From contig CAZTEW010000001.1 of the NCBI GenBank assembly GCA_964612215.1, positions 12,432 through 76,431 of the forward strand: a stretch of 64,000 nt of DNA. The letters are read 5' to 3'. Shown piece after piece: positions 37,094-55,131 of the stretch. This DNA comes from an uncultured Gammaproteobacteria bacterium. GTDB lineage: Bacteria; Patescibacteriota; Microgenomatia; CAZTEW01. The position numbers and the translations under genes are program-made. The number at the start of each line of letters is the position of its first letter. The stretch's first letter is position 1. The notes beneath the pieces are model-generated. The model saw nothing but the letters and a program-made list of their open reading frames with translations, searched no databases and was not told the origin of the DNA.

Positions 37094-40090
37094 CTATTGC
37101 CAGGCGTCGCAGAGGAGTTGGTAGGGGCAGAAATCGCAGAGCTTGCTGGGTGTGGGCAAAAATTGACTTTTCTGAATTGCTTCAGCTTTTTGGATGATTT
37201 CTTTTTTGGCACTGGTCAGTTGGATTGCGGTTCGTTGCGTGGAAAGTTTTTGCACCGGCTCGAGGAAAATGAAACTGAGAATGATTTCTTCTGGTTTTTT
37301 GCCGTAAATGCCCGAATCAGTGGCCGCCAAGGCATAAATTGTCGCTTGTAAATCTTGGTCAACTTCTTTTTGGGTTTTCGCCTTGCCGGTTTTATAATCA
37401 ATGATTTCCATTTTGCCCGCCGACGAGGCGGAGTCAATCCGGTCGATTTTGCCTCTGATTTTCAGGCTGCGGCTCAGGGGGAAAGAAAAGCCCTGTTCTA
37501 AAGCCAGAGGTTTGATGCTGGAGTCATAAAGCTTTTTATAAAAATGGCGTAAAATAGTTTTGCCCCGCAGTAGCATTTTCTTTTCATGAGCTTTTGAAGA
37601 ATAGCCTAATGGCGACCAATTTTTTTCCAGAAGAGACAGGAGTTGCTGACCAGCAGGCTGTTTGAGCCGGTAAAAGTCTCTTAGGGTTTTATGAATCGTC
37701 TCGCCAAAACTAAGGCTGGCTGAGGCTGGTGTCGGTATTCGCAAAAGATATTGATATTTATACTGCAGAGGGCAAACAGCAAAGGTGTTAATTTGAGAAT
37801 AGGAAAGAGAGCTGATAGTGATTAGCGGTTCGCCAGCTGGTCCGCCTGCCAGGCGGGCAGGTCGGACTGACGGCGCTGGTTTAAAGTCAAGAAAAGAAAG
37901 CTGATCAGCCGGTTGCTTGGCTTGACGGCCAGGCATTTCTCCTAAAGTTTCAGAGACAAACGGTGAGATTTTTTTCTTCTGCTTAGCCTCAGCGTAATAA
38001 TCGGCCGCGGTTAAAAAAAGCCGGTCTTGAGCCCGGGTCAGCCCGACATAAAACAGCCGGCGTTCTTCTTGCTGGTGATAATCGCCCTGAGGCAAAAACT
38101 CCTTGATGATTGCTTCTGGCAAGGGGATTTGTTCCGGACGCTGGGTAGTGGGGAAGCGCTGATTAACGAGATTGACTAAGAAAACGACTGGAAACTCCAA
38201 ACCCTTAGCTGAGTGGATGGTGAGGAGATTGACCGCGTCGGTTTCGCTCCAATCGACATCAGCCGCCAAAGGCGATTCACCCAGGTTGATTTTCATCTTC
38301 AACCAGTCGACGACCGGAAAAACAGAAGCGTCTTCATGGTTGCTTTCATAAGTTCTCAGCTGGTCAAAAAATTTGGCTGTGTTCAGCGCTTGACGCTCAG
38401 CCAGGGCCGTCTGGTAGCTGGTAATCGCTTTCAGCAAACCGGTTTCTTCGAGGAAGTAATAAAGAATTTGACCGCTGCTTTTCTTGGGGATTAATTTTAA
38501 ATGCCGGTGAATCATTTTAATGATTTTGCTGATTTTCTGTTGGGAGTCGAGGCTGATTCTGGGTCGGGGCCGCTGGCTTTCTTCTTGACTGACTTCTTCA
38601 CAGCCTGTAAATAAAGACAGCTGATGTTTGCGGCTGAAACTGCGGATGGCCGCTAAATCCCGGGCCGAAACCTGGAAAATATCCATGGTTAAAACTCTGA
38701 AGAAAGCGACATCATCTTCAAAATCATCAAGAACTTGAAGATAAGCGATGAGATTCTTGATTTCTGGCTGGCGCAAAAGCCGGCCCGGGCCTAAAAATTG
38801 AGAGGGAATGTCATGACGAGTTAAGGCCTGGCTAAAAGGATGAGCATGGTTATTGGCCCGGACGAGAATCGCAAAATCCGACCAACGATAATTTTTACAT
38901 TTCGCAGAAATCCCGCCTTGCGGGCTTTTTAATTTTAAATTTTTAATTTTCTTTGCCACTGCTTCTGCTTCGTTTTCGACTCGATCAAGATGGAGAAATT
39001 CAATTTTTTCGCCTTTGATTTTCCGAACAGGCATGAGTCGTTTGTTGATTTTCTCCTGAATCTCGAGCCGGTCAGGATTGTTATGTTGGATAAGTTGATA
39101 AGCGGCGTCAAGAATCGTTTTCGTCGAGCGGTAATTGCGGATCAGAGAAACGACTTTTGCTTTGGGAAAGCGTTTTCTGAACTGAAGAACATTGGCAATG
39201 GCCGCGCCGCGCCATTTGTAGATCGCCTGGTCATCGTCACACGCAACGGTAATATTGGCCCGCCGATGAGGCGGGCGGGCGAGAAGAATCGCCAGTTCGT
39301 TTTGGCTGATGTTGGTATCCTGAAATTCGTCCACCAGCAGGTATCTAAAGCGCTGCTGATATTCTCTCAGAATATATTTTCTCTTTCGGAAAAGCTGGAG
39401 GGTATTGCTGATTAGGTCACTGAAATCCATTCGACTCTCTTTGATTTTCAGCTCTTGGTATTTTTTGAAAGCCCGAGCCAGCTCAAGATATTTTCTAACT
39501 TCAGTTTTATCAATTTTGATTTTTGATTTGTCATTTTGACTTTTGACTTGCCCGCCTTGCGGGATTTCTGCGAAATGTGACTTTTGAGTTTGAGCCCAAT
39601 GAAAATATTCATTGGGCGATATATCTTCGTCACGCAAGCGATTAAAATGCTGGAGCAAACCGCCGAGGAATTTAGTCGGGTTGCCTTGGGGTCGGAAATA
39701 ATTGAGCGGCAAGTCAAAAAGATGGTTTTTCAAGAACAGCAAAGATTCAGCTTCAGTCATCAGGACGAAGCCTGGGTCTAGGCCGACATTCACCGCTTCA
39801 TCGCGCAAAACCCGGTCGCAAAAAGAATGAAAAGTCGCAATCCACATTTGGGTGTAGCCGTAAGGCATGGCCTGGTCAACCCTTTCTTCCATTTCCTGAG
39901 CGGCTTTCTCGGTGAAAGTTAGGGCCAGGATTTCTGCCGGCTTGGCAAGACCCTGATTGATCAACCACCTGATTCGTTCAGTGATGACGGTAGTTTTGCC
40001 AGTGCCAGCGCCGGCAATAATCAACAAAGGACCTTGTTTGTGTTCGACCGCTCTTTTCTGTTCTGGATTAAGAACTTTTCTGTCCGTCAC
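37094..40090 (-). CDS. UvrD/PcrA-family helicase fused to C-terminal PD-(D/E)xK nuclease with 4-Cys cluster (AddA/AddB/Cas4-like)
   Basis: 998 aa. Walker A IIAGAGTGKTTV. UvrD motifs. C-terminus CPLQYKYQY..CDFCPYQLLCDAWQ. Carries two in-frame palindromic element insertions. Confidence 0.8.
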   Translation of the reverse strand: MTDRKVLNPEQKRAVEHKQGPLLIIAGAGTGKTTVITERIRWLINQGLAKPAEILALTFTEKAAQEMEERVDQAMPYGYTQMWIATFHSFCDRVLRDEAVNVGLDPGFVLMTEAESLLFLKNHLFDLPLNYFRPQGNPTKFLGGLLQHFNRLRDEDISPNEYFHWAQTQKSHFAEIPQGGQVKSQNDKSKIKIDKTEVRKYLELARAFKKYQELKIKESRMDFSDLISNTLQLFRKRKYILREYQQRFRYLLVDEFQDTNISQNELAILLARPPHRRANITVACDDDQAIYKWRGAAIANVLQFRKRFPKAKVVSLIRNYRSTKTILDAAYQLIQHNNPDRLEIQEKINKRLMPVRKIKGEKIEFLHLDRVENEAEAVAKKIKNLKLKSPQGGISAKCKNYRWSDFAILVRANNHAHPFSQALTRHDIPSQFLGPGRLLRQPEIKNLIAYLQVLDDFEDDVAFFRVLTMDIFQVSARDLAAIRSFSRKHQLSLFTGCEEVSQEESQRPRPRISLDSQQKISKIIKMIHRHLKLIPKKSSGQILYYFLEETGLLKAITSYQTALAERQALNTAKFFDQLRTYESNHEDASVFPVVDWLKMKINLGESPLAADVDWSETDAVNLLTIHSAKGLEFPVVFLVNLVNQRFPTTQRPEQIPLPEAIIKEFLPQGDYHQQEERRLFYVGLTRAQDRLFLTAADYYAEAKQKKKISPFVSETLGEMPGRQAKQPADQLSFLDFKPAPSVRPARLAGGPAGEPLITISSLSYSQINTFAVCPLQYKYQYLLRIPTPASASLSFGETIHKTLRDFYRLKQPAGQQLLSLLEKNWSPLGYSSKAHEKKMLLRGKTILRHFYKKLYDSSIKPLALEQGFSFPLSRSLKIRGKIDRIDSASSAGKMEIIDYKTGKAKTQKEVDQDLQATIYALAATDSGIYGKKPEEIILSFIFLEPVQKLSTQRTAIQLTSAKKEIIQKAEAIQKSQFLPTPSKLCDFCPYQLLCDAWQ
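38890..38950. mobile_element. Palindromic hairpin element copy 2, in-frame within helicase gene
   Basis: aatttttACATTTCGCAGAAAT-CCCGCCTTGCGGG-ctttttaattttaaatttttaatttt. Identical 36-nt core to copy 1. Encodes KKIKNLKLKSPQGGISAKCKN. Confidence 0.6.
39511..39590. mobile_element. Palindromic hairpin element copy 3 (opposite-arm variant), in-frame within helicase gene
   Basis: ttttgatttttgatttgtcattttgacttttgacttg-CCCGCCTTGCGGG-ATTTCTGCGAAATGtgacttttgag. The right arm is the reverse complement of the left arm of copies 1 and 2. Flanked by direct repeat tgacttttga. Encodes EIPQGGQVKSQNDKSKIKID. Confidence 0.55.
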
Positions 40091-41894: not shown

Positions 41895-43331
41895 ATGGCC
41901 AAGAAATTTTACATTACGACCGCTATTCCTTACGTCAATGCCTCACCCCATTTAGGTCATGCCTTGGAATTTGTTCAGGTCGATGCTGCTGCCAGGTATC
42001 ATCGCTTAGTCGGGGAGGTCTTTTTTGCTACCGGCTCTGATGAGAATGCCTTGAAAAATGTTCAAGCAGCCCAGAAAAGGAACATGACCACTCAACAGTT
42101 GTGCGACCAGGTGACTCAAGAATTTAAGAAGTTTGCCAGACGGCTTAACATTCAATATGATGTCTGGCGCCGAGGGTCTGATAAAAAAAGACATTGGCCA
42201 GGGGTGCATCGACTTTGGCAGCTTTGTCAAAAATCCGGCGATATCTATAAGAAAAGTTACCAGGGGCTTTATTGTGTCGGTTGTGAAGCTTTTTTGACTC
42301 CTAAAGACCTACAGAATGGTCAATGCCCGTACCACTTAAAGAAGCCAGAATTGATTGAAGAAATAAATTATTTCTTTCGCCTGTCCAAATACGAAGACAA
42401 GATAAAACATTTAATCGAGTCGAACGAACTGAAAGTTTTTCCTAAAAAAAGAAAAAATGAAATTTTAGCTTTCATTAATCAGGGGTTGAAAGATTTTAGC
42501 GTTTCTAGGTCAACTCAAAGAACGCATGGTTGGGGCATCCCTGTTCCTGGTGATGATTCCCAAATGATTTATGTTTGGTATGACGCCTTAACTATTTATA
42601 TGACGGCGGTGGGTTGGGGTTATGACCAAAAGCGCTGGAAGGGGTTCTGGCCAGCCGACCTTCATGTTATCGGCAAGGATATCGTCCGTTTTCATGCCGT
42701 TTATTGGCCGGCAATGCTTTTAAGCGCCGGGCTAGCTTTACCCAAAGCAATTTTAGTGCACGGTTTCATCACCTCCGGCGGCCAAAAAATGGCCAAGAGT
42801 TTAGGTAATGTTGTTGATCCTCAGGAAATTGCCAAAAAATACGGCGCTGATGCCCTGAGATATTATCTTTTAAAAGAAATTCCTACTCAAGATGACGGTG
42901 ATTTCACTGTTAAGCATTTTGAGGAAATTTATAATGCTGATCTGGCTAATGGGCTAGGGAATTTAGTGCAGCGGGTGGCAAAGCTAGCCGAAGATTATAA
43001 AATTTATAACAATTATAAACTTTATAAAAACTATAAAATTTATAATAAATTTTTTAGTGAATATCGCTTTAACGACTGTTTGGTTTGGTTGTGGGAAAAA
43101 ATTGCCAGTGTCGATAAATACCTTGATCAAACTCAGCCGTGGAATAAGAAAGGGAAAGAACGAGTCAAGATATTAGTGAAACCAGTGAAGGAGATTCGCG
43201 AGATTGCTTTTCTTTTACAGCCATTTTTGCCGGAAACAGCCGTGGCCATTGAGAAAATATTCAGCGCCGATAAAATAAAAGCACCGGGAAAACCACTTTT
43301 TCCGCGCCTGCCGGTCGGCAGGCAGGGGTGA
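41895..43331 (+). CDS. metG: Methionine--tRNA ligase
   Basis: 478 aa. HIGH-type PYVNASPHLGHALE. KMSKS as KMAKSLGN. Confidence 0.9.
   Translation: MAKKFYITTAIPYVNASPHLGHALEFVQVDAAARYHRLVGEVFFATGSDENALKNVQAAQKRNMTTQQLCDQVTQEFKKFARRLNIQYDVWRRGSDKKRHWPGVHRLWQLCQKSGDIYKKSYQGLYCVGCEAFLTPKDLQNGQCPYHLKKPELIEEINYFFRLSKYEDKIKHLIESNELKVFPKKRKNEILAFINQGLKDFSVSRSTQRTHGWGIPVPGDDSQMIYVWYDALTIYMTAVGWGYDQKRWKGFWPADLHVIGKDIVRFHAVYWPAMLLSAGLALPKAILVHGFITSGGQKMAKSLGNVVDPQEIAKKYGADALRYYLLKEIPTQDDGDFTVKHFEEIYNADLANGLGNLVQRVAKLAEDYKIYNNYKLYKNYKIYNKFFSEYRFNDCLVWLWEKIASVDKYLDQTQPWNKKGKERVKILVKPVKEIREIAFLLQPFLPETAVAIEKIFSADKIKAPGKPLFPRLPVGRQG
42993..43048. repeat. 9-nt tandem repeat (tataaaNNt x about 6) encoding YKIYNNYKLYKNYKIYNK inside metG
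   Basis: Direct read: gattataaaatttataacaattataaactttataaaaactataaaatttataataaa. Confidence 0.7.
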
Positions 43332-44827: not shown

Positions 44828-46102
44828 ATGAACCAATTTACCGCCAGTTTGTGGGGAGATGAAGCCTTTGCTGCGGTTTTAGCCCAAAAGCCATATTGGC
44901 AAATTGTTCTCAGGGCTGCCAGAGACACTTCGCCGCCTCTTTTTTATCTTTCCCTTCATACCTGGATGAAGTTTTTTGGCAGCAGTGAGCTGGCCATCAG
45001 AACCCACTCCTTTCTCTATTTCCTCTTGTTGATTTATGTGGTTTATCTTTTTGGGAAACATCTTTTCAATAAGAAAATTGGCATGATCGCGGCAATGTTA
45101 ACCTTTCTCAACCCTTTTTTATTTCAATATGGTTTTGAAGGCCGAATGTATTCCATTCTAGCCTTTTATTCTACTTTATCGATGTATTTTTTTATCACCC
45201 AAAAGAAATGGCCCTATATTTTAGCGAGCACGGCTGCCTTGTATTCTCATCATTTTGCTATTTTTATTATTTTGAGCCAATTTATTTTTCAGCTACCAAA
45301 ATTAAAGAAAAATTTCATAGAAACGATTAAACCATTTTTCTGGATAGGATTTTTCTACCTTCCTTGGCTTTATCCTCTTTATTATCAGACTTCATTAGTC
45401 ACCAGTGGTTTTTGGTTGGCTAAACCTGATTTAGAAAGCGTTTATCATCTTTTTAGAAGTTTTTTGGCGGGCGGCTTTGAGCATCAGCTTAAGAACAAGA
45501 TTTTACTGGTTAGCGGTTTATTGCTTTTAGGCCGGCGCTGGCAGAAAGAGGATTTCTTGCTTTTGGGCTGGCTGGCTTTACCAATTAGCCTGACCTTCCT
45601 TTTTTCTCAACTTAAACAATCCATTTTTTTTGACCGCTACTTGCTTTTTGTCATCCCGTCCCTAATTTTGCTTATGACATCCCGACTAAGAAAAATAGCC
45701 TATCCGTTGTTAGTCTTGTTGATTTTCTGGCTGGCAGTGACTAATTTTTCCTATTTTACCCAGCCGACAAAAAGGCCGTTTCGAGAATTGGCTCAATTTG
45801 TTCACCAAACAGCTAGGCCTGGCGACGCATTAATTAACTGGAGTGGTCAGGCTCATCATTTTTTCGAATCTAAATATTATGGTCTATCAGCACCGCTTTA
45901 TTATCCCCAAGGCGAACCGCCATTTTATATTGGGACTGCTTTAATGGAAGCAGAAGATATTATTAAAGAGTTGCCAGTCAAAGGAAGAACTGGAGTGGTT
46001 ACCAGCGACTCAACCGAGTCAGTAACCTTGCCTGGCTACCAACAAGAACAGGTTCATAATTTTGGCGGTTTGAAATTAATATGGTTTATCAAAAGATTTT
46101 GA
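44828..46102 (+). CDS. GT-C fold membrane glycosyltransferase (ArnT/PMT-like)
   Basis: 424 aa polytopic. N-terminal WGDEAF..DTSPPLFY loop typical of GT39/GT83. Confidence 0.55.
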   Translation: MNQFTASLWGDEAFAAVLAQKPYWQIVLRAARDTSPPLFYLSLHTWMKFFGSSELAIRTHSFLYFLLLIYVVYLFGKHLFNKKIGMIAAMLTFLNPFLFQYGFEGRMYSILAFYSTLSMYFFITQKKWPYILASTAALYSHHFAIFIILSQFIFQLPKLKKNFIETIKPFFWIGFFYLPWLYPLYYQTSLVTSGFWLAKPDLESVYHLFRSFLAGGFEHQLKNKILLVSGLLLLGRRWQKEDFLLLGWLALPISLTFLFSQLKQSIFFDRYLLFVIPSLILLMTSRLRKIAYPLLVLLIFWLAVTNFSYFTQPTKRPFRELAQFVHQTARPGDALINWSGQAHHFFESKYYGLSAPLYYPQGEPPFYIGTALMEAEDIIKELPVKGRTGVVTSDSTESVTLPGYQQEQVHNFGGLKLIWFIKRF

Positions 46103-47532
46103 TCATTATTTTGATTGGCGCTTTTTTCTTGCGGCTGCCTTCGCTTTTTGAACCTTTTACTTATGCTGATGAAGGTATTTATTTAACCTTGGGCCAGGCA
46201 ATGCAGCAAGGTAAAATTCTTTACCGAGAGATTCATGATAATAAACCGCCCTTACTTTATCTTTTGGCGGCCCTAGCGGGTAACTTTACTTATTTTCGCC
46301 TTTTATTGATGATCTGGGGCCTGTTTACTATTTATCTTTTTTCACTTTTAGCCCGCCAACTTTTTCCTCAAAAACCAAAAGCCTGGTTACTTGCCACTGG
46401 TTTTTTTGCTATTCTCACCTCAGTTCATACTTTTGAAGGTAATATTGCCAATGCAGAAAATTTTATGCTTTTACCAACAATTGCTGGTTTTTGGCTGATT
46501 CTTAAAAACCTTAAAAATAAGTCAATGTTTCCTTTTTTTCTCGCCGGCTCCTTTTTTGCTTTAGCTGTCTTATTTAAAATTCCCGCTGCCTTTGATTTCT
46601 TGGCCGCCTTAATCTTTCTTTGCTTCATTTCGATTAAACGAAAAGAGAAGCTACCTGCTAGTCGCTACCTGCTAGTCTCTATTTTAGGATTTGCCTTGCC
46701 TTTTCTGATGACTTTTATTTATTTTTACTACCAGAAGGCTCTTTCTCAATATTTAGTCGCGGCCTTTTATCAAAATATTCCCTATCTTTCTTCGTGGGGA
46801 GGCCAGTCTCAAGCTTTCAGCTTCCCCTTTGGCTTTTTAGCTCGGAGTTTAATCGTCGCCGGAACAGTGATCATTGTTTTTCTTTTCAGCAAGAGGCTAA
46901 CCCTGGCAAGCCAATTGATTTTAATTTGGTTTTCTTTTTCACTTTTTGCCGCCTTACTTTCTTCAAGACCTTATCCGCATTATTTATTGCAAATCATGCC
47001 GAGCTTGTCTTTAGCCTTTGGTTTGATTTTGATTTGCTCTTGGGAGAAATTTTTGCCTTTTTTCCTAATGGCGGTTTTTGTCGCTACTTTTTGGGCCTTT
47101 CATTTCTGGCATTATCCCAACCTAAGCTATTATCTTAATTTTTATCAATTTGCCCTAGGAATGAAGACCAAGGATCAATATTTGACTACTTTTGATCCCC
47201 GAGCAGAGATGACTTATCAGCTAGTTCATTATATTTGCAGTCATACTCAAGTTGAGGAGCCAATTTTTATTTGGGGAACCGAGCCATCGGTTTATGCCTT
47301 GTCTCGCCGGCCGCCAGTTGGTCGCTATACGGTCAAATATCATATTATTGATTTCAACGGTTATACAGAAACGATGGCCGCTCTTAAACAAACGCCGCCC
47401 CGTTTAGTGGTGATTATCGGCGATGCAGAAAAAGAGTTTTCAGAACTAGCTTTTTTTCTGAAGAAATATTATTTCAAGAACCATAATATTGGCGAGAGTG
47501 AAATTTACTGGCTTCGAGAGAAACCATCATGA
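46081..47532 (+). CDS. GT-C fold membrane glycosyltransferase (ArnT/PMT-like)
   Basis: 483 aa. YADEGIY..HDNKPPLLY loop motifs. Contains a 14-nt exact tandem duplication at 46649-46676. Confidence 0.55.
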   Translation: MVYQKILIIILIGAFFLRLPSLFEPFTYADEGIYLTLGQAMQQGKILYREIHDNKPPLLYLLAALAGNFTYFRLLLMIWGLFTIYLFSLLARQLFPQKPKAWLLATGFFAILTSVHTFEGNIANAENFMLLPTIAGFWLILKNLKNKSMFPFFLAGSFFALAVLFKIPAAFDFLAALIFLCFISIKRKEKLPASRYLLVSILGFALPFLMTFIYFYYQKALSQYLVAAFYQNIPYLSSWGGQSQAFSFPFGFLARSLIVAGTVIIVFLFSKRLTLASQLILIWFSFSLFAALLSSRPYPHYLLQIMPSLSLAFGLILICSWEKFLPFFLMAVFVATFWAFHFWHYPNLSYYLNFYQFALGMKTKDQYLTTFDPRAEMTYQLVHYICSHTQVEEPIFIWGTEPSVYALSRRPPVGRYTVKYHIIDFNGYTETMAALKQTPPRLVVIIGDAEKEFSELAFFLKKYYFKNHNIGESEIYWLREKPS

Positions 47533-47870
47533 GAAGATTTATCAGAGATAAAAGAAACCGTCTGCCGATTAAAATCTTTTTCGGATTTTTAATCTTTGAT
47601 GTTTTGCTTTTGTTGTTTTTTGTTTTTTCTCTGCCGCCGGAAATTCCTCTTTTTTATTCCCGTCCGTGGGGAGAAAGCCAGTTAGCCGCGCCAGGATTAA
47701 TTTGGCTGCTGCCGACAGCTGTCTTCTTGATTGGTCTCTTGAACCTTTATTTAGCCGTCATTTTTTTTGCAGAACTGCCATTTTTGTCTCATGTTTTAAA
47801 TTGGAGCAATGTCCTGATGTCTTTCTTGGCGACGGTTTCAATAGCGAAGATTATTACCTTGGTTTTTTAA
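47529..47870 (+). CDS. Small membrane protein (hypothetical)
   Basis: 113 aa. 3 TM helices. 4-nt overlaps with neighbours. Confidence 0.3.
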   Translation: MRRFIRDKRNRLPIKIFFGFLIFDVLLLLFFVFSLPPEIPLFYSRPWGESQLAAPGLIWLLPTAVFLIGLLNLYLAVIFFAELPFLSHVLNWSNVLMSFLATVSIAKIITLVF

Positions 47871-48887
47871 ATGAATCTGGTTATTTTGCCGCTTATTTTA
47901 AGTTTTTGCGCCGTGTTCTTCATTACGCCGCTGGTGATCAAACTAGCTAATTTTTTTGGTCTGGTTGACGATTCCCAAAAAAGAGAACACCCGGCTCATA
48001 CCCATCATGGCGTTGTGCCTCGAGCCGGCGGCTTAGCCGTTTTTTTAGGAATTTTCCTGATCAGTTTAATTTTTTTGCCGTTGGACAAACATCTTCAGGG
48101 AATTTTGTTAGGCAGTTTGATTGTCGTTCTGGTTGGTTTACTGGACGACAAATACGACCTGAGCCCCTATTTGCGGCTAGGAACTAATTTCTTGGCGGCC
48201 GGCTGTTTAGTGGTTGCCGGCATTGGCATCAACTTTATTAATAATCCGTTGGACGGCATTTTAATTTTAAACAAAACCGAGTCAGTTTTTTTCGCTGTTT
48301 TTTGGGTGGTTTGGTGCATGAACATGGTTAATTGGAGCAAAGGAGTTGATGGCCAGATGCCTGGTTTCGTGGGGATTGCGGCCACGGTTATCGGCCTGCT
48401 TAGTTTAAGATTCAGCGCTGATATTACTCAGTGGTCGGTGACGATTCTGGCTTTTATCACCGCCGGCGCTTTTTTAGGGTTTTTGCCCTGGAATTTTTAT
48501 CCGCAAAAAATTATGCCTGGTTACGGCGGCGGCAGTCTTGGTGGCTATCTACTGGCGACTCTTTCGATTCTTTCAACCGCGAAAGTAGGCACCATGCTTC
48601 TGGTTTTAGGAATTCCTTTAATTGACGGCGGTTACACCATTCTGCGCCGGATTTTGACCGGCAGACTGCCTTTTTGGGGAGATCGCGGCCATCTTCATCA
48701 CCGCTTGTTGGCCATGGGCTGGGGTCGGCGCCGGATTGCTTTTTTTTACTGGCTGGTTTCTGCTTTTTTGGGCATGATTGCTTTATCCTTAAATCCGCGG
48801 CAAAAATTTTATACGGTAATTTTCTTGACGGCTTTATTGGGCGGAGCGCTGCTTTGGCTGACCCAATTTCTTAAAAAGAAGTCTTAA
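47871..48887 (+). CDS. Polyprenyl-phosphate N-acetylhexosamine-1-phosphate transferase (WecA/MraY family, GT4)
   Basis: 338 aa. LLDDKYDLSP and NMVNWSKGVDGQ motifs of the MraY/WecA superfamily. Confidence 0.75.
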   Translation: MNLVILPLILSFCAVFFITPLVIKLANFFGLVDDSQKREHPAHTHHGVVPRAGGLAVFLGIFLISLIFLPLDKHLQGILLGSLIVVLVGLLDDKYDLSPYLRLGTNFLAAGCLVVAGIGINFINNPLDGILILNKTESVFFAVFWVVWCMNMVNWSKGVDGQMPGFVGIAATVIGLLSLRFSADITQWSVTILAFITAGAFLGFLPWNFYPQKIMPGYGGGSLGGYLLATLSILSTAKVGTMLLVLGIPLIDGGYTILRRILTGRLPFWGDRGHLHHRLLAMGWGRRRIAFFYWLVSAFLGMIALSLNPRQKFYTVIFLTALLGGALLWLTQFLKKKS

Positions 48888-49711
48888 TTTTTAGTGGCAT
48901 ATTGGCCGGCAATCCAACCCTCTTGGCCTTCCTCAAATTCAATTTTATACCAACCATTGTTTTCTTCCAGGAGAATAAATTCAGCGCCTGGCTTGACCCT
49001 AGCCGCTTCAGTGGCAGATAAATTTGGTTCCCAGCGCACGCGAAGCCAGCCAGTAGGAGTTTCATTGATAACGACCGTCTTTTGCCCTGCTTCTTTGATG
49101 GCCGCGCTGGCAGTAGCCTCCGGAGATAACACTTCTTCCCCATCAGCTGTTTTGGCCAGCTGAACGTTAATGATTAATTTCCGGCCGAGAATTGTTTTGG
49201 CTTTGATTTCCTTTTGCTGATAGCCGGGTAAAGTCAAGGAAACCAGGTGGTCGCCTTCCTGGATGTCTTCCAAAGAAATCGGAGTAAAGCCGCGAGTCAC
49301 AGCGTCAACTTTCACCAAAACGCCATCTGGTTGAGAAATAATTGCCAAAACCATCAATCTTTTGTTATTGAGTGATTCTAGGTTCAGGATGGTGCTGCTG
49401 GACTTTTCTTCGCTGGCAGCTAACTGACAATCAATCACCGTGGAAACGCCGGAAACTAGAGAAACTTTTTTTTCCCAAGAAATCAACCCCGCCTCTGGCG
49501 GGGTTATTTTTAAGAGATATTCGCCAGGTTGAAGATTTTCTTGCTTGAAAGGCGTCTGGCCTAAGTGCTTGCCCTCGAGGAAAACAATCGCCTCCGGCTG
49601 GCAATTAATTTCTAGGCCGGCATGCTTTTGAAAGGAAAACGGCCGGAAATGAAAAAATAAAGGAGCGGCAATAATCAAAATGACCCCGACGACAATTAAT
49701 AACCATTTCAC
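48884..49711 (-). CDS. PEGA-domain protein with C-terminal bacterial SH3 domain
   Basis: 275 aa. N-terminal TM. Two PEGA-like repeats (GKHLGQTPF.., GFTPISL). SH3b-like TGWLRVRWEPNLSATEAARVKPGAEFILLEENNGWYKIEF. Confidence 0.5.
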   Translation of the reverse strand: MKWLLIVVGVILIIAAPLFFHFRPFSFQKHAGLEINCQPEAIVFLEGKHLGQTPFKQENLQPGEYLLKITPPEAGLISWEKKVSLVSGVSTVIDCQLAASEEKSSSTILNLESLNNKRLMVLAIISQPDGVLVKVDAVTRGFTPISLEDIQEGDHLVSLTLPGYQQKEIKAKTILGRKLIINVQLAKTADGEEVLSPEATASAAIKEAGQKTVVINETPTGWLRVRWEPNLSATEAARVKPGAEFILLEENNGWYKIEFEEGQEGWIAGQYATKN

Positions 49712-49802: not shown

Positions 49803-49873
49803 GACCGCGTACCCAAGAGGTTAGGGAGTTGTCTGCAAAACAACTAACGCCGGTTCGAATCCGGCCGCGGTCT
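49803..49873 (+). tRNA. tRNA-Cys (GCA)
   Basis: Hand-folded. Acceptor GACCGCG/CGCGGTC. Anticodon stem gttgt/acaac with loop ctGCAaa. T-arm gccgg-ttcgaat-ccggc. Discriminator T. CCA not encoded. Confidence 0.8.
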
Positions 49874-49893
49874 CAAAGAAACAAGAGTTAAGG

Positions 49894-49917
49894 GTTTAAA
49901 AGTTTAAGAGTTTAAGA
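49894..49917. repeat. 8-nt tandem repeat gtttaaRa x3 (left flank of cassette)
   Basis: gtttaaaa gtttaaga gtttaaga, directly after the tRNA. Confidence 0.8.
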
Positions 49918-50345
49918 GTATAATTTTTTGTTTAAGTATTTTTTACGCAGCATCGCTTTGAATTCTTCGGCTGAATCTTGAGTTTCTTTTTTCCATTTTA
50001 AACCTTTATACTTTGACACCTTGACACTCTCAATAAATTTATAAATTATTCCTGAAGTTTGCCTGGCCAAATTAAAGGCTTTTTCAAATCCTTGCTTGTT
50101 AATAAAGTTTTGGTCCAGAGCGACATAGAGCTGGGCTCTGACTTCGCCGCAAGAAGCCTTGGCGATATAGAGAAAATAAAGCAGGTCGTCTTTTGTTCCC
50201 CGCTCAAAGCCTTCAGCGATATTGGATAAGACAGAGACGGCGGCGCGCCGGATCTGGTCTTTCAGAGAAAAGTCGGAAAAGCTTTAGTCCGGGCTTTTTG
50301 CCAGCAATAAAGATCTTCGAAGGTTTTTACTTTTAACTCGGGCAT
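49912..50345 (-). pseudogene. Four-helix-bundle protein (23S rRNA-intervening-sequence-protein family), frameshifted and N-terminally degenerate
   Basis: Own translation. MPELKVKTFEDLYCWQKARTKAFPTFL then a stop. A different frame continues FSDFSLKDQIRRAAVSVLSNIAEGFERGTKDDLLYFLYIAKASCGEVRAQLYVALDQ... This matches the WQKA..FP..SQ.RRAA.S..NIAEG family pattern but with a missing segment and a frame change. Not in the ORF track. Confidence 0.55.
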
Positions 50346-50373
50346 TAACTTAATTTAAACATAAAGACTGTTG

Positions 50374-50413
50374 CTTTAAAAGTTTAAAAGTTTAAAAGTT
50401 TAAAGGTTTAAGA
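50374..50413. repeat. 8-nt tandem repeat (c/g)tttaaRR x5 (right flank of cassette)
   Basis: ctttaaaa gtttaaaa gtttaaaa gtttaaag gtttaaga. Confidence 0.8.
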
Positions 50414-50462
50414 GGCGAGCCCGCCGCCATCAACTTGACTGCCTTTCCACTGTTTCTGCAAA

Positions 50463-50759
50463 TTAAATTGCTGTCGGTGACTCGCTGGCCGTAGGCGGTT
50501 CTTGAGCTGGTTTTTGATAAGCCTCAAAAGCGGCTGTTGCTGTCGGATTAACTTTTTTCAAGACCTCCAAAACCTGGTTTCTCACCTCAAAACTCTTGAT
50601 TACTCCCCCGATGGCCGCTCCCTGCACCCAAGCTTCGACTTGCTTAGTTACTTCCTCCGCTTGTTCAGGAGTTGAGCCGGCTTTAACAACACCATTCAAA
50701 ACCTTATTGCGGTCAAAATCTTCTGTGTTTCCGTCTTTTTTCTGAACCTTGACTGGCAT
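50463..50759 (-). CDS. ATP-cone domain protein
   Basis: MPVKVQKKDGNTEDFDRNKVLNGVVKAG fits the ATP-cone (NrdR/NrdA N-terminal-type) pattern. 98 aa. Confidence 0.55.
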   Translation of the reverse strand: MPVKVQKKDGNTEDFDRNKVLNGVVKAGSTPEQAEEVTKQVEAWVQGAAIGGVIKSFEVRNQVLEVLKKVNPTATAAFEAYQKPAQEPPTASESPTAI

Positions 50760-50786
50760 TTTTCCTCACCCCCTCTCCAATATAAA

Positions 50787-51554
50787 TTAACTGGCTAACC
50801 AACCACCATCAACATAAATCACTGTTCCGGTGATATAATCAGCTTCGTCTGAGGCCAGAAAAGCGGCCGCCGCGCCAATATCCGCTGGCTTGCCGGTCCG
50901 GCCCTTCAGGATTCTGGTCATTAAGCCCTGTTTGGTTTTTTCATCCGCCAGCATGTCTTTAGTCATATCGCTTTCAATCACGCCCGGGCCAATGGCGTTA
51001 ACATTAATGCCTTTTTTCGCTAAATCAACCGCCATGTTTTCCGTAAGAGCGACGACGCCGCCCTTGGAAGCGGTGTAATGAGAAATATTGCTGAAACCAA
51101 CACCCACTCCGCCGGAAGCAATCGAGGCGATATTGATAATTTTACTGCCGGCAGTCATCAATTTGACCGCTTCCTGAGAGCAAAGAAACTGGCCTTTAAG
51201 ATTAACGGCCATCAGTTGATCCCACTGCTCTTCGGTTAACTCCTCAAACGGCGCAAACTGGAGAATACCGGCGTTGTTAACCAGGATGTCTAATTTAGCC
51301 CATTTTTCTTTGATGCCGGCGAACATTTTTCTGACGGCTTCTGAACTAGACACATCCGCCTGGAGACTAAAACTTTCCCGGCCCATTTGTTTAATCTGGC
51401 TGACGACTGCTTCAGCGGCTTCGGCCTGGGAATGGTAATTAATCGCCACGGCTGCACCCTGAGTTGCCAAGGCCAAGACAATTCCCTTGCCGATACCCCG
51501 GGAGCCGCCGGTGACTAAAGCTTTCTTGCCGCTTAAATCAAACATTTTTTTCAT
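50787..51554 (-). CDS. Short-chain dehydrogenase/reductase (FabG-like)
   Basis: KKALVTGGSRGIGKGIVLALA; NNAG; YxxxK present (YTASKGG). Start trimmed to MKKMFDLSGKK. Confidence 0.8.
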   Translation of the reverse strand: MKKMFDLSGKKALVTGGSRGIGKGIVLALATQGAAVAINYHSQAEAAEAVVSQIKQMGRESFSLQADVSSSEAVRKMFAGIKEKWAKLDILVNNAGILQFAPFEELTEEQWDQLMAVNLKGQFLCSQEAVKLMTAGSKIINIASIASGGVGVGFSNISHYTASKGGVVALTENMAVDLAKKGINVNAIGPGVIESDMTKDMLADEKTKQGLMTRILKGRTGKPADIGAAAAFLASDEADYITGTVIYVDGGWLAS

Positions 51555-52551
51555 TGCCAATCTGAATAACAGTTTCAATTAATCTTTGGCTGGTTGCCCA
51601 TTCATTGTCATACCAGGCAATAATTTTGGCAAAATTATTGCCAATCACCTGGGTTCTTTCCAAGTCCACAATGGCCGAATGGGGATTGGCGATAATGTCA
51701 GAAGAAACCAATGGTTCTTGAGTAGTCGTCAGGATATTTTTCAAATCAGATTGAGAGGCTTGAAGAAAAGCACGATTAATGGCGTCGGCGTCAGTTTCTT
51801 TTTCCAGGATGACTGCCAAATCAAGCAAAGAACCGGTGATTACCGGTACGCGGACAGCCAAACCATCAAGTTTACCTTTGAGCTGGGGAATGGCCTTGGC
51901 CACCGCTTGGATAGCGCCGGTAGAAGTAGGAATAATATTCTGGCCAGCGGCCCGAGCTCGTCTAAGGTCTTGACGAGAGCTGTCTTGAAGATTTTGATCG
52001 CCGGTATAAGCATGAACCGTCGTCAGAAAAGCTTTGTTTATCCCGAAGTTTTCCAAAATGACTTTTAAAACCGGCGCGGCGCAATTAGTGGTGCAGGAGC
52101 CACCATCAATGATTTCTTCGCCTTGATATTGATCTAGATTAACCCCGACGAGATAGGTTGGAATTTTCTCATCTTTGGTCGGCGCCGAAATCAGGACTTT
52201 TTTAGCACCGGCCTGAAGATGGCCGTTAACGCCGGCTTGATCGCGGAAAACCCCAGTCGCTTCTAAAACCACATCAATGTCATATTGCCGCCAGGGTAAT
52301 TTAGCTGGCTCCCGCTCGCCAGAAAGAGGGATTTTCTGCTGGCCAATCATTAAATGGTTTTGATCACTGGTAACTTCTTTTTGATAAGGTCCGTAAGCCG
52401 TGTCATATTTAAAAAGATGAGCCCAGCCGGCGGCTTCCATGCTGCCAGAAGTATTAATGGCCGCCACCTTGATTTCTTGAGGATGCTCTAGGGCAATTCT
52501 GAAACTGACGCGGCCAATACGGCCAAAGCCATTAATCGCTAACTTCACCAT
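51538..52551 (-). CDS. gap: Glyceraldehyde-3-phosphate dehydrogenase (type I)
   Basis: MVKLAINGFGRIGR.. and active-site SCTTNCAAP. Start at MVKLAING. The 32-aa track extension is rejected. Confidence 0.9.
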   Translation of the reverse strand: MVKLAINGFGRIGRVSFRIALEHPQEIKVAAINTSGSMEAAGWAHLFKYDTAYGPYQKEVTSDQNHLMIGQQKIPLSGEREPAKLPWRQYDIDVVLEATGVFRDQAGVNGHLQAGAKKVLISAPTKDEKIPTYLVGVNLDQYQGEEIIDGGSCTTNCAAPVLKVILENFGINKAFLTTVHAYTGDQNLQDSSRQDLRRARAAGQNIIPTSTGAIQAVAKAIPQLKGKLDGLAVRVPVITGSLLDLAVILEKETDADAINRAFLQASQSDLKNILTTTQEPLVSSDIIANPHSAIVDLERTQVIGNNFAKIIAWYDNEWATSQRLIETVIQIGNEKNV

Positions 52552-52660
52552 CGCTTGACTAGCATAACACAAGGGATATTGACTGATCAACCGTTTTTTG
52601 GTAATATCAAGCCAGGAGTAGAGAAAGAGGTGGGAGACAGAACCCACCTTTTTTAAAAAT

Positions 52661-53704
52661 ATGGCAGTTATTAGTGCGAGAACAGAATTTGCCAGCGCCC
52701 TGAATCAGATTTGCGCGGAAAGGGGCATAGAATTAAAAGCGGCTCTAGAATCAATTGAAGCCGCGATTTTAGCCGCTTTTAAGAAAGATTTTGGTTTGGA
52801 AGAGGACTGGGAATACAGTGTCCAATTAGACAAAAATACCGGTCATGCCAAGATTTTCCGGTACTCCGAAGTAAAACCAGAAGACAGGAAAGAAGTAACG
52901 CCGCGGGGTTTTGGCAGAATTGCTGCTCAAACCGCCAAGCAGGTGATTCTGCAAAAAATTCGCGAAGCGGAAAAAAGCGCCATCCTTGATGAATACAAAA
53001 CCAGAATTGATACTTTGGTTAACGGCCGGATTCTCCGCTTTGACGGAGCCAACATCATCTGTGATATTGGTCGCGGGCAGGGCGTGATGTTGCCGGAAGG
53101 CCAGGTGAAAAGCGAGAATTACCGGCCTAACCAGCGCTTGACTTTTTATATTGTCAAGATTGGTGAAACCGAAACTGGGGAACAAGTGATTGTTTCTCGG
53201 GCTGACGAGCGTTTAGTCACCAGTCTCTTTCGCCGAGAAGTGCCGGAAATTGCCTCCGGAGCCGCAGAAATCAAGGCGATTGCCCGGGAAGCCGGTAATC
53301 GGACTAAAATTGCTGTTTTTTCCAATAAACCTGGAGTTGATCCGGTGGGTTCCTGTGTCGGCCAAAAAGGAGTTAGGGTTCAGGCAGTGATTGATGAAAT
53401 TAACAACGAGAAAATCGATGTTATCCAATGGTACGGAGACCCGGCGAAGTTCATTGCCGCCAGCCTGGCGCCGGCAGAAAAAGCCAAAGTTGAACTAAAT
53501 GAGAAAAAGAAGACGGCTTTGGTAACGATTAGCGAGAATCAGCTTTCCTTGGCGATTGGTAAAGAAGGCCAAAATGCCCGCTTAGCCGCTAAGCTGACCG
53601 GCTGGAAAATTGATGTGAAGCCTTCCTCTGTTAAAACTAAAAGAGAGGAGAAACCCCACTCCGCTAAAGCTCCGTTAGGGGTTAAAAAAAGTGAGGCCAA
53701 GTGA
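52661..53704 (+). CDS. nusA: Transcription termination/antitermination factor NusA
   Basis: NusA N-terminal domain (SIEAAILAAFKKDFG), S1 (GRILRFDGANIICDIGRG), KH (VGSCVGQKGVRVQAVIDEI). Confidence 0.85.
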   Translation: MAVISARTEFASALNQICAERGIELKAALESIEAAILAAFKKDFGLEEDWEYSVQLDKNTGHAKIFRYSEVKPEDRKEVTPRGFGRIAAQTAKQVILQKIREAEKSAILDEYKTRIDTLVNGRILRFDGANIICDIGRGQGVMLPEGQVKSENYRPNQRLTFYIVKIGETETGEQVIVSRADERLVTSLFRREVPEIASGAAEIKAIAREAGNRTKIAVFSNKPGVDPVGSCVGQKGVRVQAVIDEINNEKIDVIQWYGDPAKFIAASLAPAEKAKVELNEKKKTALVTISENQLSLAIGKEGQNARLAAKLTGWKIDVKPSSVKTKREEKPHSAKAPLGVKKSEAK

Positions 53705-55131
53705 AAAAACCACCGGTTGTGGCCATTCTCGGTCATATTGATCATGGCAAAACCAGCTTGCTTTCAAAAATCAGAGCTCAGGATTTAACCAAAAAAGAAT
53801 CAGGCGGGATTACTCAGCATATTGGTGCTTATCAGGTAAAGCACCAAGGCCAGACGATTACTTTCATTGATACTCCAGGTCACGTTGCCTTTGCCAAGAT
53901 GCGGGCTCGGGGAGCACAAGTGACTGATTTGGTGATTTTAGTGATTGCGGCTGATGATGGCATCATGCCCCAGACCAAAGAATCTTTGGCGCATATTCGG
54001 GCCGCCAAAACGCCATTCTTGGTGGCGATTAATAAGGTTGATCTAGCGGCAGCCGGACCGCAAAAAGTCAAAGAACAGCTTCAGAAAGAAGGGATTTTAG
54101 TCGAGGATTTAGGCGGCGACGTTGTGGCTGTTGAGGTTTCGGCTAAAACAGGCCAGGGAATTAACGAGCTTTTGGAATTAATCCTTCTTTCCGTGGAGAT
54201 GCAGGAGAAAAAGGTTGATCCGGCAGCTCGTCTGAGAGCCGTCGTGATTGAATCGACGCTTGATCATCGCCGTGGTCCAGTGGCTAGCCTGCTGGTCCAG
54301 GATGGAATTTTGCGCCTCGGCGATGAACTGAAATCAGGCCGGATTGAAGGCAAGGTGAAAGCGATGTTTAACGAAGACGGCCAGAAAATCACTGCGGCCG
54401 GCCCGAGCCAGCCGGCTGAAGTGCTGGGATTTAAGGAAGTACCGCCGGTAGGCAGTCTGGTGAGAAAAGCGCTGGATCCAGCCGCGCTTCAAGATCACTT
54501 TTTCTCAGCGAACGAAGACCGGCTACAGCCAGATCAGACAGCAGTGGAGAAAAAACTTAAAATCATCCTGAAAGCTGATGTTCAAGGCACCCTAGAAGCG
54601 ATTAGCAGCAGTCTGCCGGCTGAAGTTGAGATTGTTGTCGGTTCAGTCGGTTTAGTGACCGAATCTGACGTTCTTTTGGCTGAGACGACGAAGGCGGAAA
54701 TCTTTGGTTTTCGGATTAAAGTGTCGACTAGCGTCGCTAAGCTGGCGAAAACAGAAGCAGTGAAGATCCAAAACTTCAACCTTATTTATGAATTGCTGGC
54801 TGAGATTAACAGGAGAATGATCGAACCAGAGAGAGTTGAAGAAATCCTTGGCCGAGCGGAAATCGTAGCAGAGTTTCAATATAACCAGACAAAAGTGGCT
54901 GGTTGTCGGCTGAAAGAAGGGAAAATCAGAAAGAGCGATTTAGTGCGTCTGCAGCGGGGCAAAGTCATCGTGGCTGAGACCAGAATCAAATCGATGAAAT
55001 ATAAAAAAGAAGACATTGAGCTGGCTAAAGAAGGCCAGGAATTCGGGGTGATTTTCAAATCCGAGCTTGACTTTCAAGCAGGAGATAGTGTATTATCGGT
55101 CGTGTTTCCGAGAAATGAATCAAAATCTTGA
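53701..55131 (+). CDS. infB: Translation initiation factor IF-2 (N-terminally short form, GTG start)
   Basis: G-domain AILGHIDHGKTSLL, DTPGH, NKVD. 476 aa beginning at the G domain. Conserved nusA-infB synteny. Confidence 0.9.
   Translation: MKKPPVVAILGHIDHGKTSLLSKIRAQDLTKKESGGITQHIGAYQVKHQGQTITFIDTPGHVAFAKMRARGAQVTDLVILVIAADDGIMPQTKESLAHIRAAKTPFLVAINKVDLAAAGPQKVKEQLQKEGILVEDLGGDVVAVEVSAKTGQGINELLELILLSVEMQEKKVDPAARLRAVVIESTLDHRRGPVASLLVQDGILRLGDELKSGRIEGKVKAMFNEDGQKITAAGPSQPAEVLGFKEVPPVGSLVRKALDPAALQDHFFSANEDRLQPDQTAVEKKLKIILKADVQGTLEAISSSLPAEVEIVVGSVGLVTESDVLLAETTKAEIFGFRIKVSTSVAKLAKTEAVKIQNFNLIYELLAEINRRMIEPERVEEILGRAEIVAEFQYNQTKVAGCRLKEGKIRKSDLVRLQRGKVIVAETRIKSMKYKKEDIELAKEGQEFGVIFKSELDFQAGDSVLSVVFPRNESKS

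Follow-up and report, generated by a model that had tools for sequence, protein, structure and literature searches.

Why does a broken gene of the four-helix-bundle (4HB) family, bracketed by short tandem repeats, lie against the 3′ end of a tRNA-Cys gene in a bacterium of the Patescibacteriota, and what are the repeats? The locus was examined in a stretch of 64,000 nucleotides (64 kb) of contig CAZTEW010000001.1 (assembly GCA_964612215.1), which is called the window below. A preliminary description, made from the letters of the DNA, had suggested a decayed mobile insert or one derived from an rRNA intervening sequence (IVS). Our results point to a probable answer of a somewhat different kind, a free-standing cassette of the IVS type, in which a 4HB gene (S23p/Avd-like, PF05635) travels with its own terminal arrays; cleavage by RNase III is the step of this account that we infer. 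The cassette gene is a pseudogene, a decayed member of the 23S-IVS-protein/four-helix-bundle family, and array brackets of the kind found around it are a hallmark of the 4HB gene family.

The features on which the argument draws are listed here by position in the window; SDR denotes short-chain dehydrogenase/reductase, ORF an open reading frame, and TRF Tandem Repeats Finder.

49803–49874, plus strand: tRNA-Cys(GCA) gene (ARAGORN; Rfam RF00005, 62.4 bits), convergent with the cassette and forming the downstream boundary of the insertion site.
49883–49923, minus strand: 3′ array of about five 8-nucleotide (nt) units, sense CTCTTAAA / CTTTTAAA (TRF, 5.2 copies, 82% matches).
49912–50345, minus strand: 4HB pseudogene (PF05635/TIGR02436), delimited by translations, Pfam, TIGR02436 and tblastn with the homologue P0001.
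49998–50033, minus strand: degenerate, inverted array inside the ORF (TRF, 50002–50027; inverted repeat I1).
50285–50286, minus strand: junction of a 28-nt deletion (alignment A2 with L001 and L002; tblastn).
50374–50413, minus strand: 5′ array of five 8-nt units, sense CTTTTAAA (TRF, 50375–50411, 4.6 copies, 96% matches).
50414–50440, minus strand: remnant of an SDR 3′ end (..VDGGGLAS-stop), fused to the 5′ array and marking the original SDR/array junction.
50463–50759, minus strand: ATP-cone gene of 98 aa (PF03477, 1.5e-11), context outside the cassette.
50787–51545, minus strand: SDR (FabG-like) gene (PF13561, 8.6e-68; homologue P0121 100% identical over 252 aa), the upstream boundary of the site, in its 252-aa form starting from M12 of the listed ORF.

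The evidence for the arrays as a property of the family came from a survey of 80 loci of one subfamily, with one genome taken per species and many phyla represented, including Ignavibacteria, Acidobacteriota, Verrucomicrobiota, Bacteroidota, Nitrospirota, Planctomycetota, Proteobacteria, and the candidate phyla radiation (CPR). The density of arrays with a period of 6 to 10 nt was 2.28 per kb in the interval from −200 to +250 nt around the 4HB gene, versus 0.32 per kb elsewhere at the same loci. Where both flanks were available (74 loci), arrays stood on both sides of the gene in 53 cases and on at least one side in 68. Their periods were 7 (100 arrays), 8 (33), and 9 (15), and their length showed a median of 32 nt, or 4.4 to 4.6 copies, with interquartile ranges of 30 to 39 nt upstream and 31 to 42 nt downstream. 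The two arrays of a locus are partners: in 45 of 57 scored loci, versus 5.9% of cross-locus pairs, the downstream unit matched the upstream one in reverse complement when a single mismatch and any rotation of the unit were allowed. Altogether 38 different unit sequences were found in the scored loci, ranging from AAAGTTC to AGTGCTG and AGGTCGC. An alignment-free comparison of 7-mers between upstream and reverse-complemented downstream flanks gave a median of 16 shared positions, against 2.7 in displaced and 3.3 in cross-locus controls. A further comparison of RNAduplex energies over whole 150-nt flanks (own versus cross-locus) was dropped in favor of these two tests because it was confounded by G+C content and by shared GTTCAA-like units.

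Annotated 4HB genes of cultured bacteria likewise carry such units, as shown by Nostoc ATCC 53789 (GGGAAAA / CCCTTTTC), Calothrix brevissima (AGGGTGT / CTACACC), and Riemerella anatipestifer (GGTTTAA / TAAACCT); the fold of the Calothrix cassette has a terminal stem of ~28 bp (z = −5.47). Direct outer arrays, as in the window, are a minority form, seen only in L009 (Thermodesulfovibrionales) among the 57 scored loci. The pool of relatives is large: 7986 of 8000 candidates scored as PF05635 homologues at E ≤ 0.001, and a motif search of a genome collection gave at least 588 relatives (588 of 600 among the matches listed).

Two side observations were made at the surveyed loci. The long proteins of L003, L004, L006, L008, L009, L013, L017, and L045, from several phyla, share a basic C-terminal motif, ..YL(K/R)xS(K/R)x(K/R)GxK(F/Y)K. 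In L003 and L004, the sequence coding for this motif (AGGTTCAAAA) matches the unit of the flanking array, and the 3′ array itself supplies the final codons, so that ORF and arrays overlap and may exchange sequence. At L026, L066, L068, and L072, more than two arrays, or adjacent array pairs in both orientations, lie near the 4HB gene; these may be nested or neighboring cassettes or hairpins without an ORF.

How does the window locus compare with this pattern? The bracketing 8-nt repeats of the preliminary description were recovered by TRF in the runs listed above. The sequence GTTTAARAGTTTAARA, with at most one mismatch, occurs seven times in the window, six of them inside the two outer arrays, versus a chance expectation of 0.02, and none of 100 shuffles reached seven. 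The outer arrays share one orientation (the 3′ array is 83% identical over 36 nt to 50376–50411; family D1) and pair poorly with one another. The 5′ array ends 28 nt upstream of the 4HB ATG and is base-for-base identical in an independent assembly of the same organism (L102), and the 4HB stop codon (49912–49914) sits within the 3′ array. A third array of period 8, which the preliminary description had missed, lies inside the ORF; its sense strand reads GTCAAGGT GTCAAAGT ATAAAGGT TTAAAATG and codes for the linker IESVKVSKYKGLKWK. This internal array is complementary to both outer arrays, at 78% over 36 nt with 50376–50411. In RNAduplex, it gave −27.1 kcal/mol with the 5′ array (z = −4.3 versus the shuffled internal segment) and −23.3 kcal/mol with the 3′ array (z = −2.2 versus the same control), and its pairing with the 5′ array is present in both the minimum-free-energy and the centroid folds of the window cassette. 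The direct outer brackets are thus two thirds of a three-part structure, in which each outer array can pair with the internal one. As in an IVS, complementary sequences can form an enclosing stem; in the window this stem encloses the 4HB domain and not the whole ORF.

The three-part anatomy was looked for in eight further CPR loci, which encode proteins of 145 to 157 aa and fall into four genomic contexts (SDR/tRNA-Cys, TsaD-LeuRS/TPR, Wzx/Wzy, and others). A 5′ array, an internal inverted array, and a 3′ array are present in seven of the eight, all but L100. The 5′ array consists of pyrimidine-rich 8-mers (CTTTTAAA, CTTTTATA, CTTTTACA) and ends a few bases before the start codon, while the 3′ array has the orientation of the 5′ array and begins at the 4HB stop codon (L001, L002, L085, L086, L090, L094, and L099). 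The internal array is purine-rich, degenerate, and inverted and codes for (I)ES(V/I)KVSKYKGLK(W/F/Y)K, the linker of the subfamily being SVKVSKYKGLKWK. In the model of P0001, this conserved stretch corresponds to the end of helix 4 and a low-confidence linker (pLDDT ~50 to 60), followed by an extra helix. All eight subfamily loci that were scored, in four different contexts, have two outer arrays in one orientation with the inverted partner inside the ORF. Duplexes between the 5′ and internal arrays reached z = −4 to −6 in six of eight loci scored, and those between the internal and 3′ arrays z = −2 to −5 in all eight. The fold of the intact locus L085 gave z = −3.15 (0/100 shuffles) and contains the long-range helix of the window. 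The order TsaD-LeuRS-4HB-TPR was observed in two genomes with substantially diverged 4HB proteins, and positions in the subfamily (L086/L090 against L094/L099) are conserved within lineages and different across lineages, a distribution that fits rare insertion followed by long vertical inheritance.

A few arrays elsewhere in the window are noted on the side. At 28461–28494, within the tsaD coding region, AGTTTAAA is repeated 4.2 times; this is the 8-nt unit of the 4HB arrays, the only near-match to GTTTAARAGTTTAARA in the window outside the cassette arrays, and it codes for SLKVSRCKSLK, a peptide similar to SVKVSKYKGLK of the 4HB linker. A comparison with TsaD of E. coli leads us to take this array not to be an insertion. 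Arrays of period 7 to 9 also lie at 1216–1247, 1746–1781, 3903–3933, 28872–28904, 39514–39546, and 42995–43045, with 4.4 to 5.7 copies, the size class of 4HB arrays. With P0001 as the tblastn query, no second 4HB gene or remnant was found in the window.

The gene between the arrays is recognizable and broken, as had been claimed. The joined translation matched PF05635 at 1.8e-25 (89.7 bits, cut-off 33.8) and TIGR02436, the model proposed as a check, at 3.4e-25 (88.4 bits, cut-off 24). The N-terminal frame (50345–50262) runs for 27 codons to a stop, and the remainder lies in another frame (50283–49912). Its closest intact homologue is P0001, a protein of 153 aa with 82% identity on the Logan contig L001. 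In tblastn, residues 1 to 20 of P0001 aligned at 50345–50286 with 100% identity and residues 31 to 153 at 50283–49915 with 84.6% identity, in a different frame. The DNA alignment with L001 and L002 shows a single clean 28-nt gap between 50285 and 50286, where GAAAAGCTTT runs directly into AGTCCGGGC in the window in place of GAAAAGCTTT-TTGTTAATTGATAAATTATTTTGACTAA-AGTCCGGGC in L001. The preliminary description had reported a frameshift at about 50265 and about 10 missing residues; both effects are real, but the single gap and the two blocks in different frames indicate that they are one event and not two defects, and the stop codon at 50262–50264 is merely where the N-terminal frame terminates after the lesion. 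In the AlphaFold model of P0001 (pLDDT 83.8; helices 13–29, 35–58, 61–87, and 93–119), the residues lost, 21 to 30, form the second half of helix 1. The window copy has no intact reading frame. Because half of helix 1 is gone and no start codon that would rescue the downstream part was found, the gene is dead, provided that the assembly is right. In Foldseek, the P0001 model matched 2GSC with a target-normalized TM-score of 0.89 to 0.92 (rmsd 1.1 to 1.3) and the best 2GSC and 2RLD chains together with 0.83 to 0.92 (rmsd 1.1 to 1.3); Avd (4DWL) is also matched.

What might the arrays do? From their complementarity as partners, we reasoned that they are probably the element's working ends. Across most phyla, where the upstream and downstream arrays are reverse complements, they would enclose the ORF in a stem of ~30 bp; in the CPR subfamily, where the outer arrays are direct, the inverted partner is the segment inside the ORF that codes for the linker after helix 4. 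In transcripts entering from the SDR operon, presumably read-through from the GAPDH-SDR-ATP-cone operon on the same strand, the internal array would pair with either the 5′ or the 3′ array. RNase III would cut this long, A-U-rich duplex as it does the heptamer stem of the Coxiella 23S IVS, which carries a homologous ORF, thereby releasing or regulating the message of the 4HB gene and insulating its neighbors. The best-supported reading is that the arrays would make an RNase III substrate in any transcript crossing the cassette, since free-standing cassettes share the anatomy of the Coxiella IVS.

Several results weigh against the free-standing-cassette account, or limit its reach. The window cassette transcript showed no extra stability relative to shuffles (z = +0.73), and its helices are A-U-rich blocks of 5 to 11 bp interrupted by 3-nt internal loops. 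The inverted arms of 61 loci yielded 115 mismatches that were informative, and in these G·U (51) was not commoner than A·C (64; p = 0.26), a result that goes against a purely RNA-level reading. The mismatches hence give no sign of selection on pairing in the sense RNA, and a DNA-level or protein-binding role fits them equally well; rapid concerted turnover of the arrays would fit them too. The 80 surveyed loci had been selected by the motifs NIAEGFER and FL[YF]IA[KR][AG]SC and represent one subfamily. Finally, the 28-nt deletion is seen in one assembly. L102, an independent ENA contig of the same organism whose SDR is 100% identical, agrees with the window over the SDR gene and onward to the end of the 5′ array; it breaks off at 50349, before the deletion is reached, and so cannot confirm it.

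Recognition by protein is the main rival to the RNase III account, and a live one, although we consider it distinctly less probable. Here the arrays would not primarily be RNA stems but binding sites, in RNA or DNA, of the ring-shaped 4HB protein itself, a homopentamer reading five cores, one per subunit, much as TRAP binds GAG repeats or a transposase its sub-terminal repeats, with autoregulation or mobility as the outcome; in this particular form we hold it to be a minority possibility. What makes it attractive is the coincidence of pentameric homologues with roughly five cores. Array length peaks sharply at the median of 32 nt, equal to five cores spaced 7 nt apart, and the window arrays have 4.6 and 5.2 copies; 2GSC, 2RLD, and 4DWL were solved as five-chain assemblies, Avd is found within the ribonucleoprotein 8UB7 of a diversity-generating retroelement (DGR), and Xcc0516 is described as a homopentamer (PMC4990558). 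The 38 unit sequences each match their own partner array, as if each protein variant had its own site, and the lack of a G·U over A·C bias is as expected of inverted sites in double-stranded DNA. However, a period of 7 to 9 nt and a length of ~30 bp suit an RNase III substrate too, one of the three arrays in the window's subfamily is coding sequence, and the arrays are unchanged beside a dead gene, though the inactivation may be recent. A broader proposal, which we put forward more tentatively still, is that 4HB genes and their arrays form a self-recognizing unit, the pentamer reading its own arrays of five units, from which ORF-bearing rRNA IVSs, free-standing 4HB cassettes, and at least part of the bacterial heptamer arrays (e.g., of STRR type) could share a common origin, with the inverted coding array of the CPR as a derived form.

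Whether the arrays arrived with the gene, as the free-standing-cassette reading would have it, was addressed by comparing orthologous sites. Homologues that carry a name in their sources are Shapirobacteria, Microgenomates, or "Patescibacteria group," and the window probably belongs to this part of the CPR. The preliminary description had proposed the comparison of sites, from PEGA gene to ATP-cone gene, and had held that an intact conserved gene without repeats in relatives would refute its reading. Two relatives do carry an intact gene, but with arrays, at the same position: L002 has the order GAPDH, SDR, array, intact 4HB (P0003), array, and tRNA-Cys, and L085 has the SDR 3′ end, array, intact 4HB (P0002), array, and tRNA-Cys. 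Their intact SDRs end in ..VDGGWLAG-stop (L002) and ..VDGGYLAG-stop (L085), the stop codon falling in the first array unit. A third relative, L103, lacks the cassette. It is syntenic (IF-2, NusA, PGK, GAPDH, SDR, tRNA-Cys, Hsp20, PEGA-SH3, GT4; SDR 80% and PEGA 52% identical to the window), and between its SDR stop and the 3′ end of tRNA-Cys stand just the 4 nt AAGC, the 4HB gene and the arrays both being absent. From these filled and empty sites, array-ORF-array is present or absent as a whole unit, the arrays having arrived with the gene. The outer arrays are not scars of insertion into a pre-existing array, since the empty site has none. Filled and empty sites alike showed no target-site duplication.

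Protein identity between the window and L002 is 74% for 4HB, 75% for SDR, and 71% for GAPDH, so the cassette has diverged together with its neighbors. Given this equal divergence and the intact copies at the same position in L002 and L085, the sequences argue for an old insertion that was inherited vertically and recently inactivated in the window genome. A Patescibacteria (Microgenomates-like) ancestor would have acquired the whole unit in the few bases separating the stop of the FabG-like SDR from the 3′ end of the convergent tRNA-Cys and passed it on vertically, until the single 28-nt deletion in helix 1 inactivated the window copy with its arrays still intact. The idea of a decayed mobile insert holds to the extent that the unit behaves as an insert and the gene has decayed, but its insertion does not date from recent times. 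No support was found for derivation from an rRNA IVS, as there is no rRNA in the window, where tRNA-Cys is the sole Rfam match, and none of the 40 related loci tested lay in rRNA.

Other homologues turned up in these searches. P0130, an SDR homologue with 82% identity, was rejected as an orthologous site because its context is different, with thioredoxin genes after the SDR. The search for orthologous loci with the PEGA protein in metagenome contigs gave only two distant loci (36% and 49% identity), of which the one bearing LAGLIDADG is too distant to inform; there (L083 1–574, PEGA 36% identical), a LAGLIDADG-like ORF lies downstream of tRNA-Cys instead of the 4HB cassette. An Hsp20 gene separates tRNA-Cys from the PEGA gene in L083 and L103 and is missing at that place in the window. 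An exact-sequence look-up of the window PEGA protein gave no record.

The upstream boundary of the site has a history of its own. A complete SDR gene lies 350 nt upstream of the 27-nt SDR remnant (VDGGGLAS-stop), with the ATP-cone gene between them, an arrangement confirmed independently by L102. The remnant is also present in L001 and L102, and the ATP-cone gene is absent from this position in L002, L085, and L103. In its DNA, the remnant is similar to the ends of the SDR genes in L001, L002, and L085 (GAYGGCGGCTGG), and the end of the present SDR is similar to that in L103 (GATGGTGGTTGG), which lacks the cassette. The SDR and ATP-cone genes may therefore have replaced the original SDR by recombination. 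L001 (1462 bp) carries the same 26-mer at both ends, consisting of the last array unit and a DGGWLAS-stop remnant, and has the order remnant-array-4HB-array-258-aa ORF (no Pfam match)-remnant-array. Cassettes in tandem, a small circular molecule, or a collapse during assembly could each account for this order.

Might the locus instead hold an ordinary resident gene, its lesion an error of assembly or sequencing and its repeats functionless slippage of an A+T-rich spacer? The gene is conserved and intact in the two syntenic relatives, the window copy shows no excess divergence (82 to 85% identity to P0001), and the second assembly does not confirm the deletion. Nevertheless, we regard this as improbable: a clean loss of 28 nt in non-repetitive coding sequence is atypical of read or consensus error, the site is polymorphic for presence and absence, and the locus-specific units, some of them G+C-rich, with matching partners in many phyla (the 45 of 57 above) contradict the view that the repeats are meaningless.

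Close to the preliminary description is the proposal of a remnant of an integrative element that targeted the tRNA gene, with the direct arrays as att-like duplications at tRNA-Cys. The tRNA gene reported there was found by ARAGORN and Rfam as the only tRNA in the window, one that annotation of the locus ought not to miss. The cassette indeed adjoins its 3′ end and is bracketed by direct repeats, and the distant L083 has its selfish-looking LAGLIDADG-like ORF downstream of tRNA-Cys. Yet nothing of the tRNA sequence occurs in the arrays, L103 with its empty site has no array to duplicate, and similar arrays flank 4HB genes in unrelated contexts. Adjacency to a tRNA is no telling trait, since relatives of the same subfamily lie after LeuRS or between Wzx and Wzy, and only two of 40 loci from other phyla have a tRNA within their flanks of ~3 kb. 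The ten ORFs scanned around the cassette (44828–49711 and 50463–55131) are housekeeping genes, without an integrase domain among them. With neither an integrase among these ORFs nor an att sequence, the locus is not a tRNA-targeting island, and this reading, which we rate as very improbable, is largely refuted. That the gene is an orphan Avd accessory gene of a DGR is the least credible proposal of all, since its PHROG match ("Avd protein of DGR," 3.7e-08) and its fold matches to Avd (4DWL) and 8UB7 are outweighed by better fold matches to the non-DGR proteins 2GSC and 2RLD and by the lack of a reverse transcriptase domain among the same ten housekeeping ORFs and among the listed neighbors of nine related CPR loci. 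In other scans, PADLOC found no defense-system match to the cassette, promoters and terminators did not rise above chance, and a viral-contig scan gave a single weak partial match.

Taken singly, the window locus is ordinary, and its own result is modest, a recently inactivated copy of an old insertion; it leads, however, to a regularity across the whole family, through which an old question can now be put to the test. The "hypothetical" proteins of PF05635 form a very large family, whose link with rRNA intervening sequences has stood unexplained since the 1990s. The 4HB gene is nearly always accompanied by locus-specific, mutually complementary arrays of ~32 nt, and filled and empty orthologous sites can be seen. 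This provides a signature for recognizing 4HB cassettes and their decayed or ORF-less remains, and a concrete link between free-standing 4HB copies and the RNase III-processed rRNA IVS. The 4HB family and the Coxiella heptamers were already known. Apart from the latter, the literature, as far as our incomplete coverage of it reached, held no account of flanking complementary arrays as a general property of the family, which is absence of evidence only.

Among known systems, integron cassettes (attC), foldback elements, and miniature inverted-repeat transposable elements (MITEs) share with the cassette a single promoter-less gene between hairpin-capable ends and presence/absence polymorphism, and the signs of gene replacement beside the boundary (the SDR remnant and the ATP-cone gene) add to the likeness. 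The cassette differs in having no integrase or transposase, in ends made of tandem 7- to 9-nt arrays rather than attC or unique terminal inverted repeats, and in the lack of a target-site duplication at the window site. Avd (4DWL, 8UB7) is a homologous four-helix bundle, a pentamer, and a component of the DGR ribonucleoprotein (PMC10053308); sequence identity is only ~12%, and no reverse transcriptase lies near the cassette (the ten ORFs).

Heptamer arrays are a second point of comparison. STRR (short tandemly repeated repetitive) sequences of heterocystous cyanobacteria are tandem heptamer repeats. Arrays of this general kind stand on either side of 4HB genes on plasmids of Nostoc and Calothrix. 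The TAACTGA and G-rich heptamers described from Beggiatoaceae, Xanthomonas, and Nostoc are intergenic, of few copies, often just upstream of start codons, and of unexplained function (PMC4679880, PMC4692102); these papers differ from our case in that they describe mostly direct sets upstream of varied genes and do not mention 4HB or S23 genes.

A further comparison is with the free-standing 4HB genes themselves (TIGR02436/PF05635; 2GSC, 2RLD), with which the cassette shares sequence family, fold, a patchy distribution over lineages, and varied contexts; those of Nostoc, Calothrix, and Riemerella have flanking arrays like those of the window, whose copy differs in being a pseudogene. Compared with other 4HB proteins, those of the CPR subfamily are longer (145 to 157 aa); they have a basic linker and, by prediction, one more helix at the C terminus.

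Experiments have been made on just one relative, the 23S IVS of Coxiella. It carries three to four tandem GACAGAT heptamers before the S23p ORF, their number depending on the strain, and a terminal stem of 28 bp, and cleavage by RNase III falls where the first repeat begins; the ORF is decaying, and the IVS is considered a selfish element of unknown origin (PMC4990558). The rRNA IVSs with an S23p ORF (Coxiella burnetii helix 45; Leptospira) have the protein family in common with the window cassette, and the Coxiella IVS shares with free-standing cassettes short tandem repeats directly before the ORF, a complementary stem of ~28 bp, and an ORF that is often decaying. The window unit differs in being 8 nt long and in having direct outer arrays with the inverted partner inside the ORF. 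Moreover, it lies between a protein gene and a tRNA gene and, like the 40 related loci, outside rRNA. Since it fails the defining location inside an rRNA gene, the cassette is not an rRNA IVS; by analogy, it may nevertheless be likened to one in its working.

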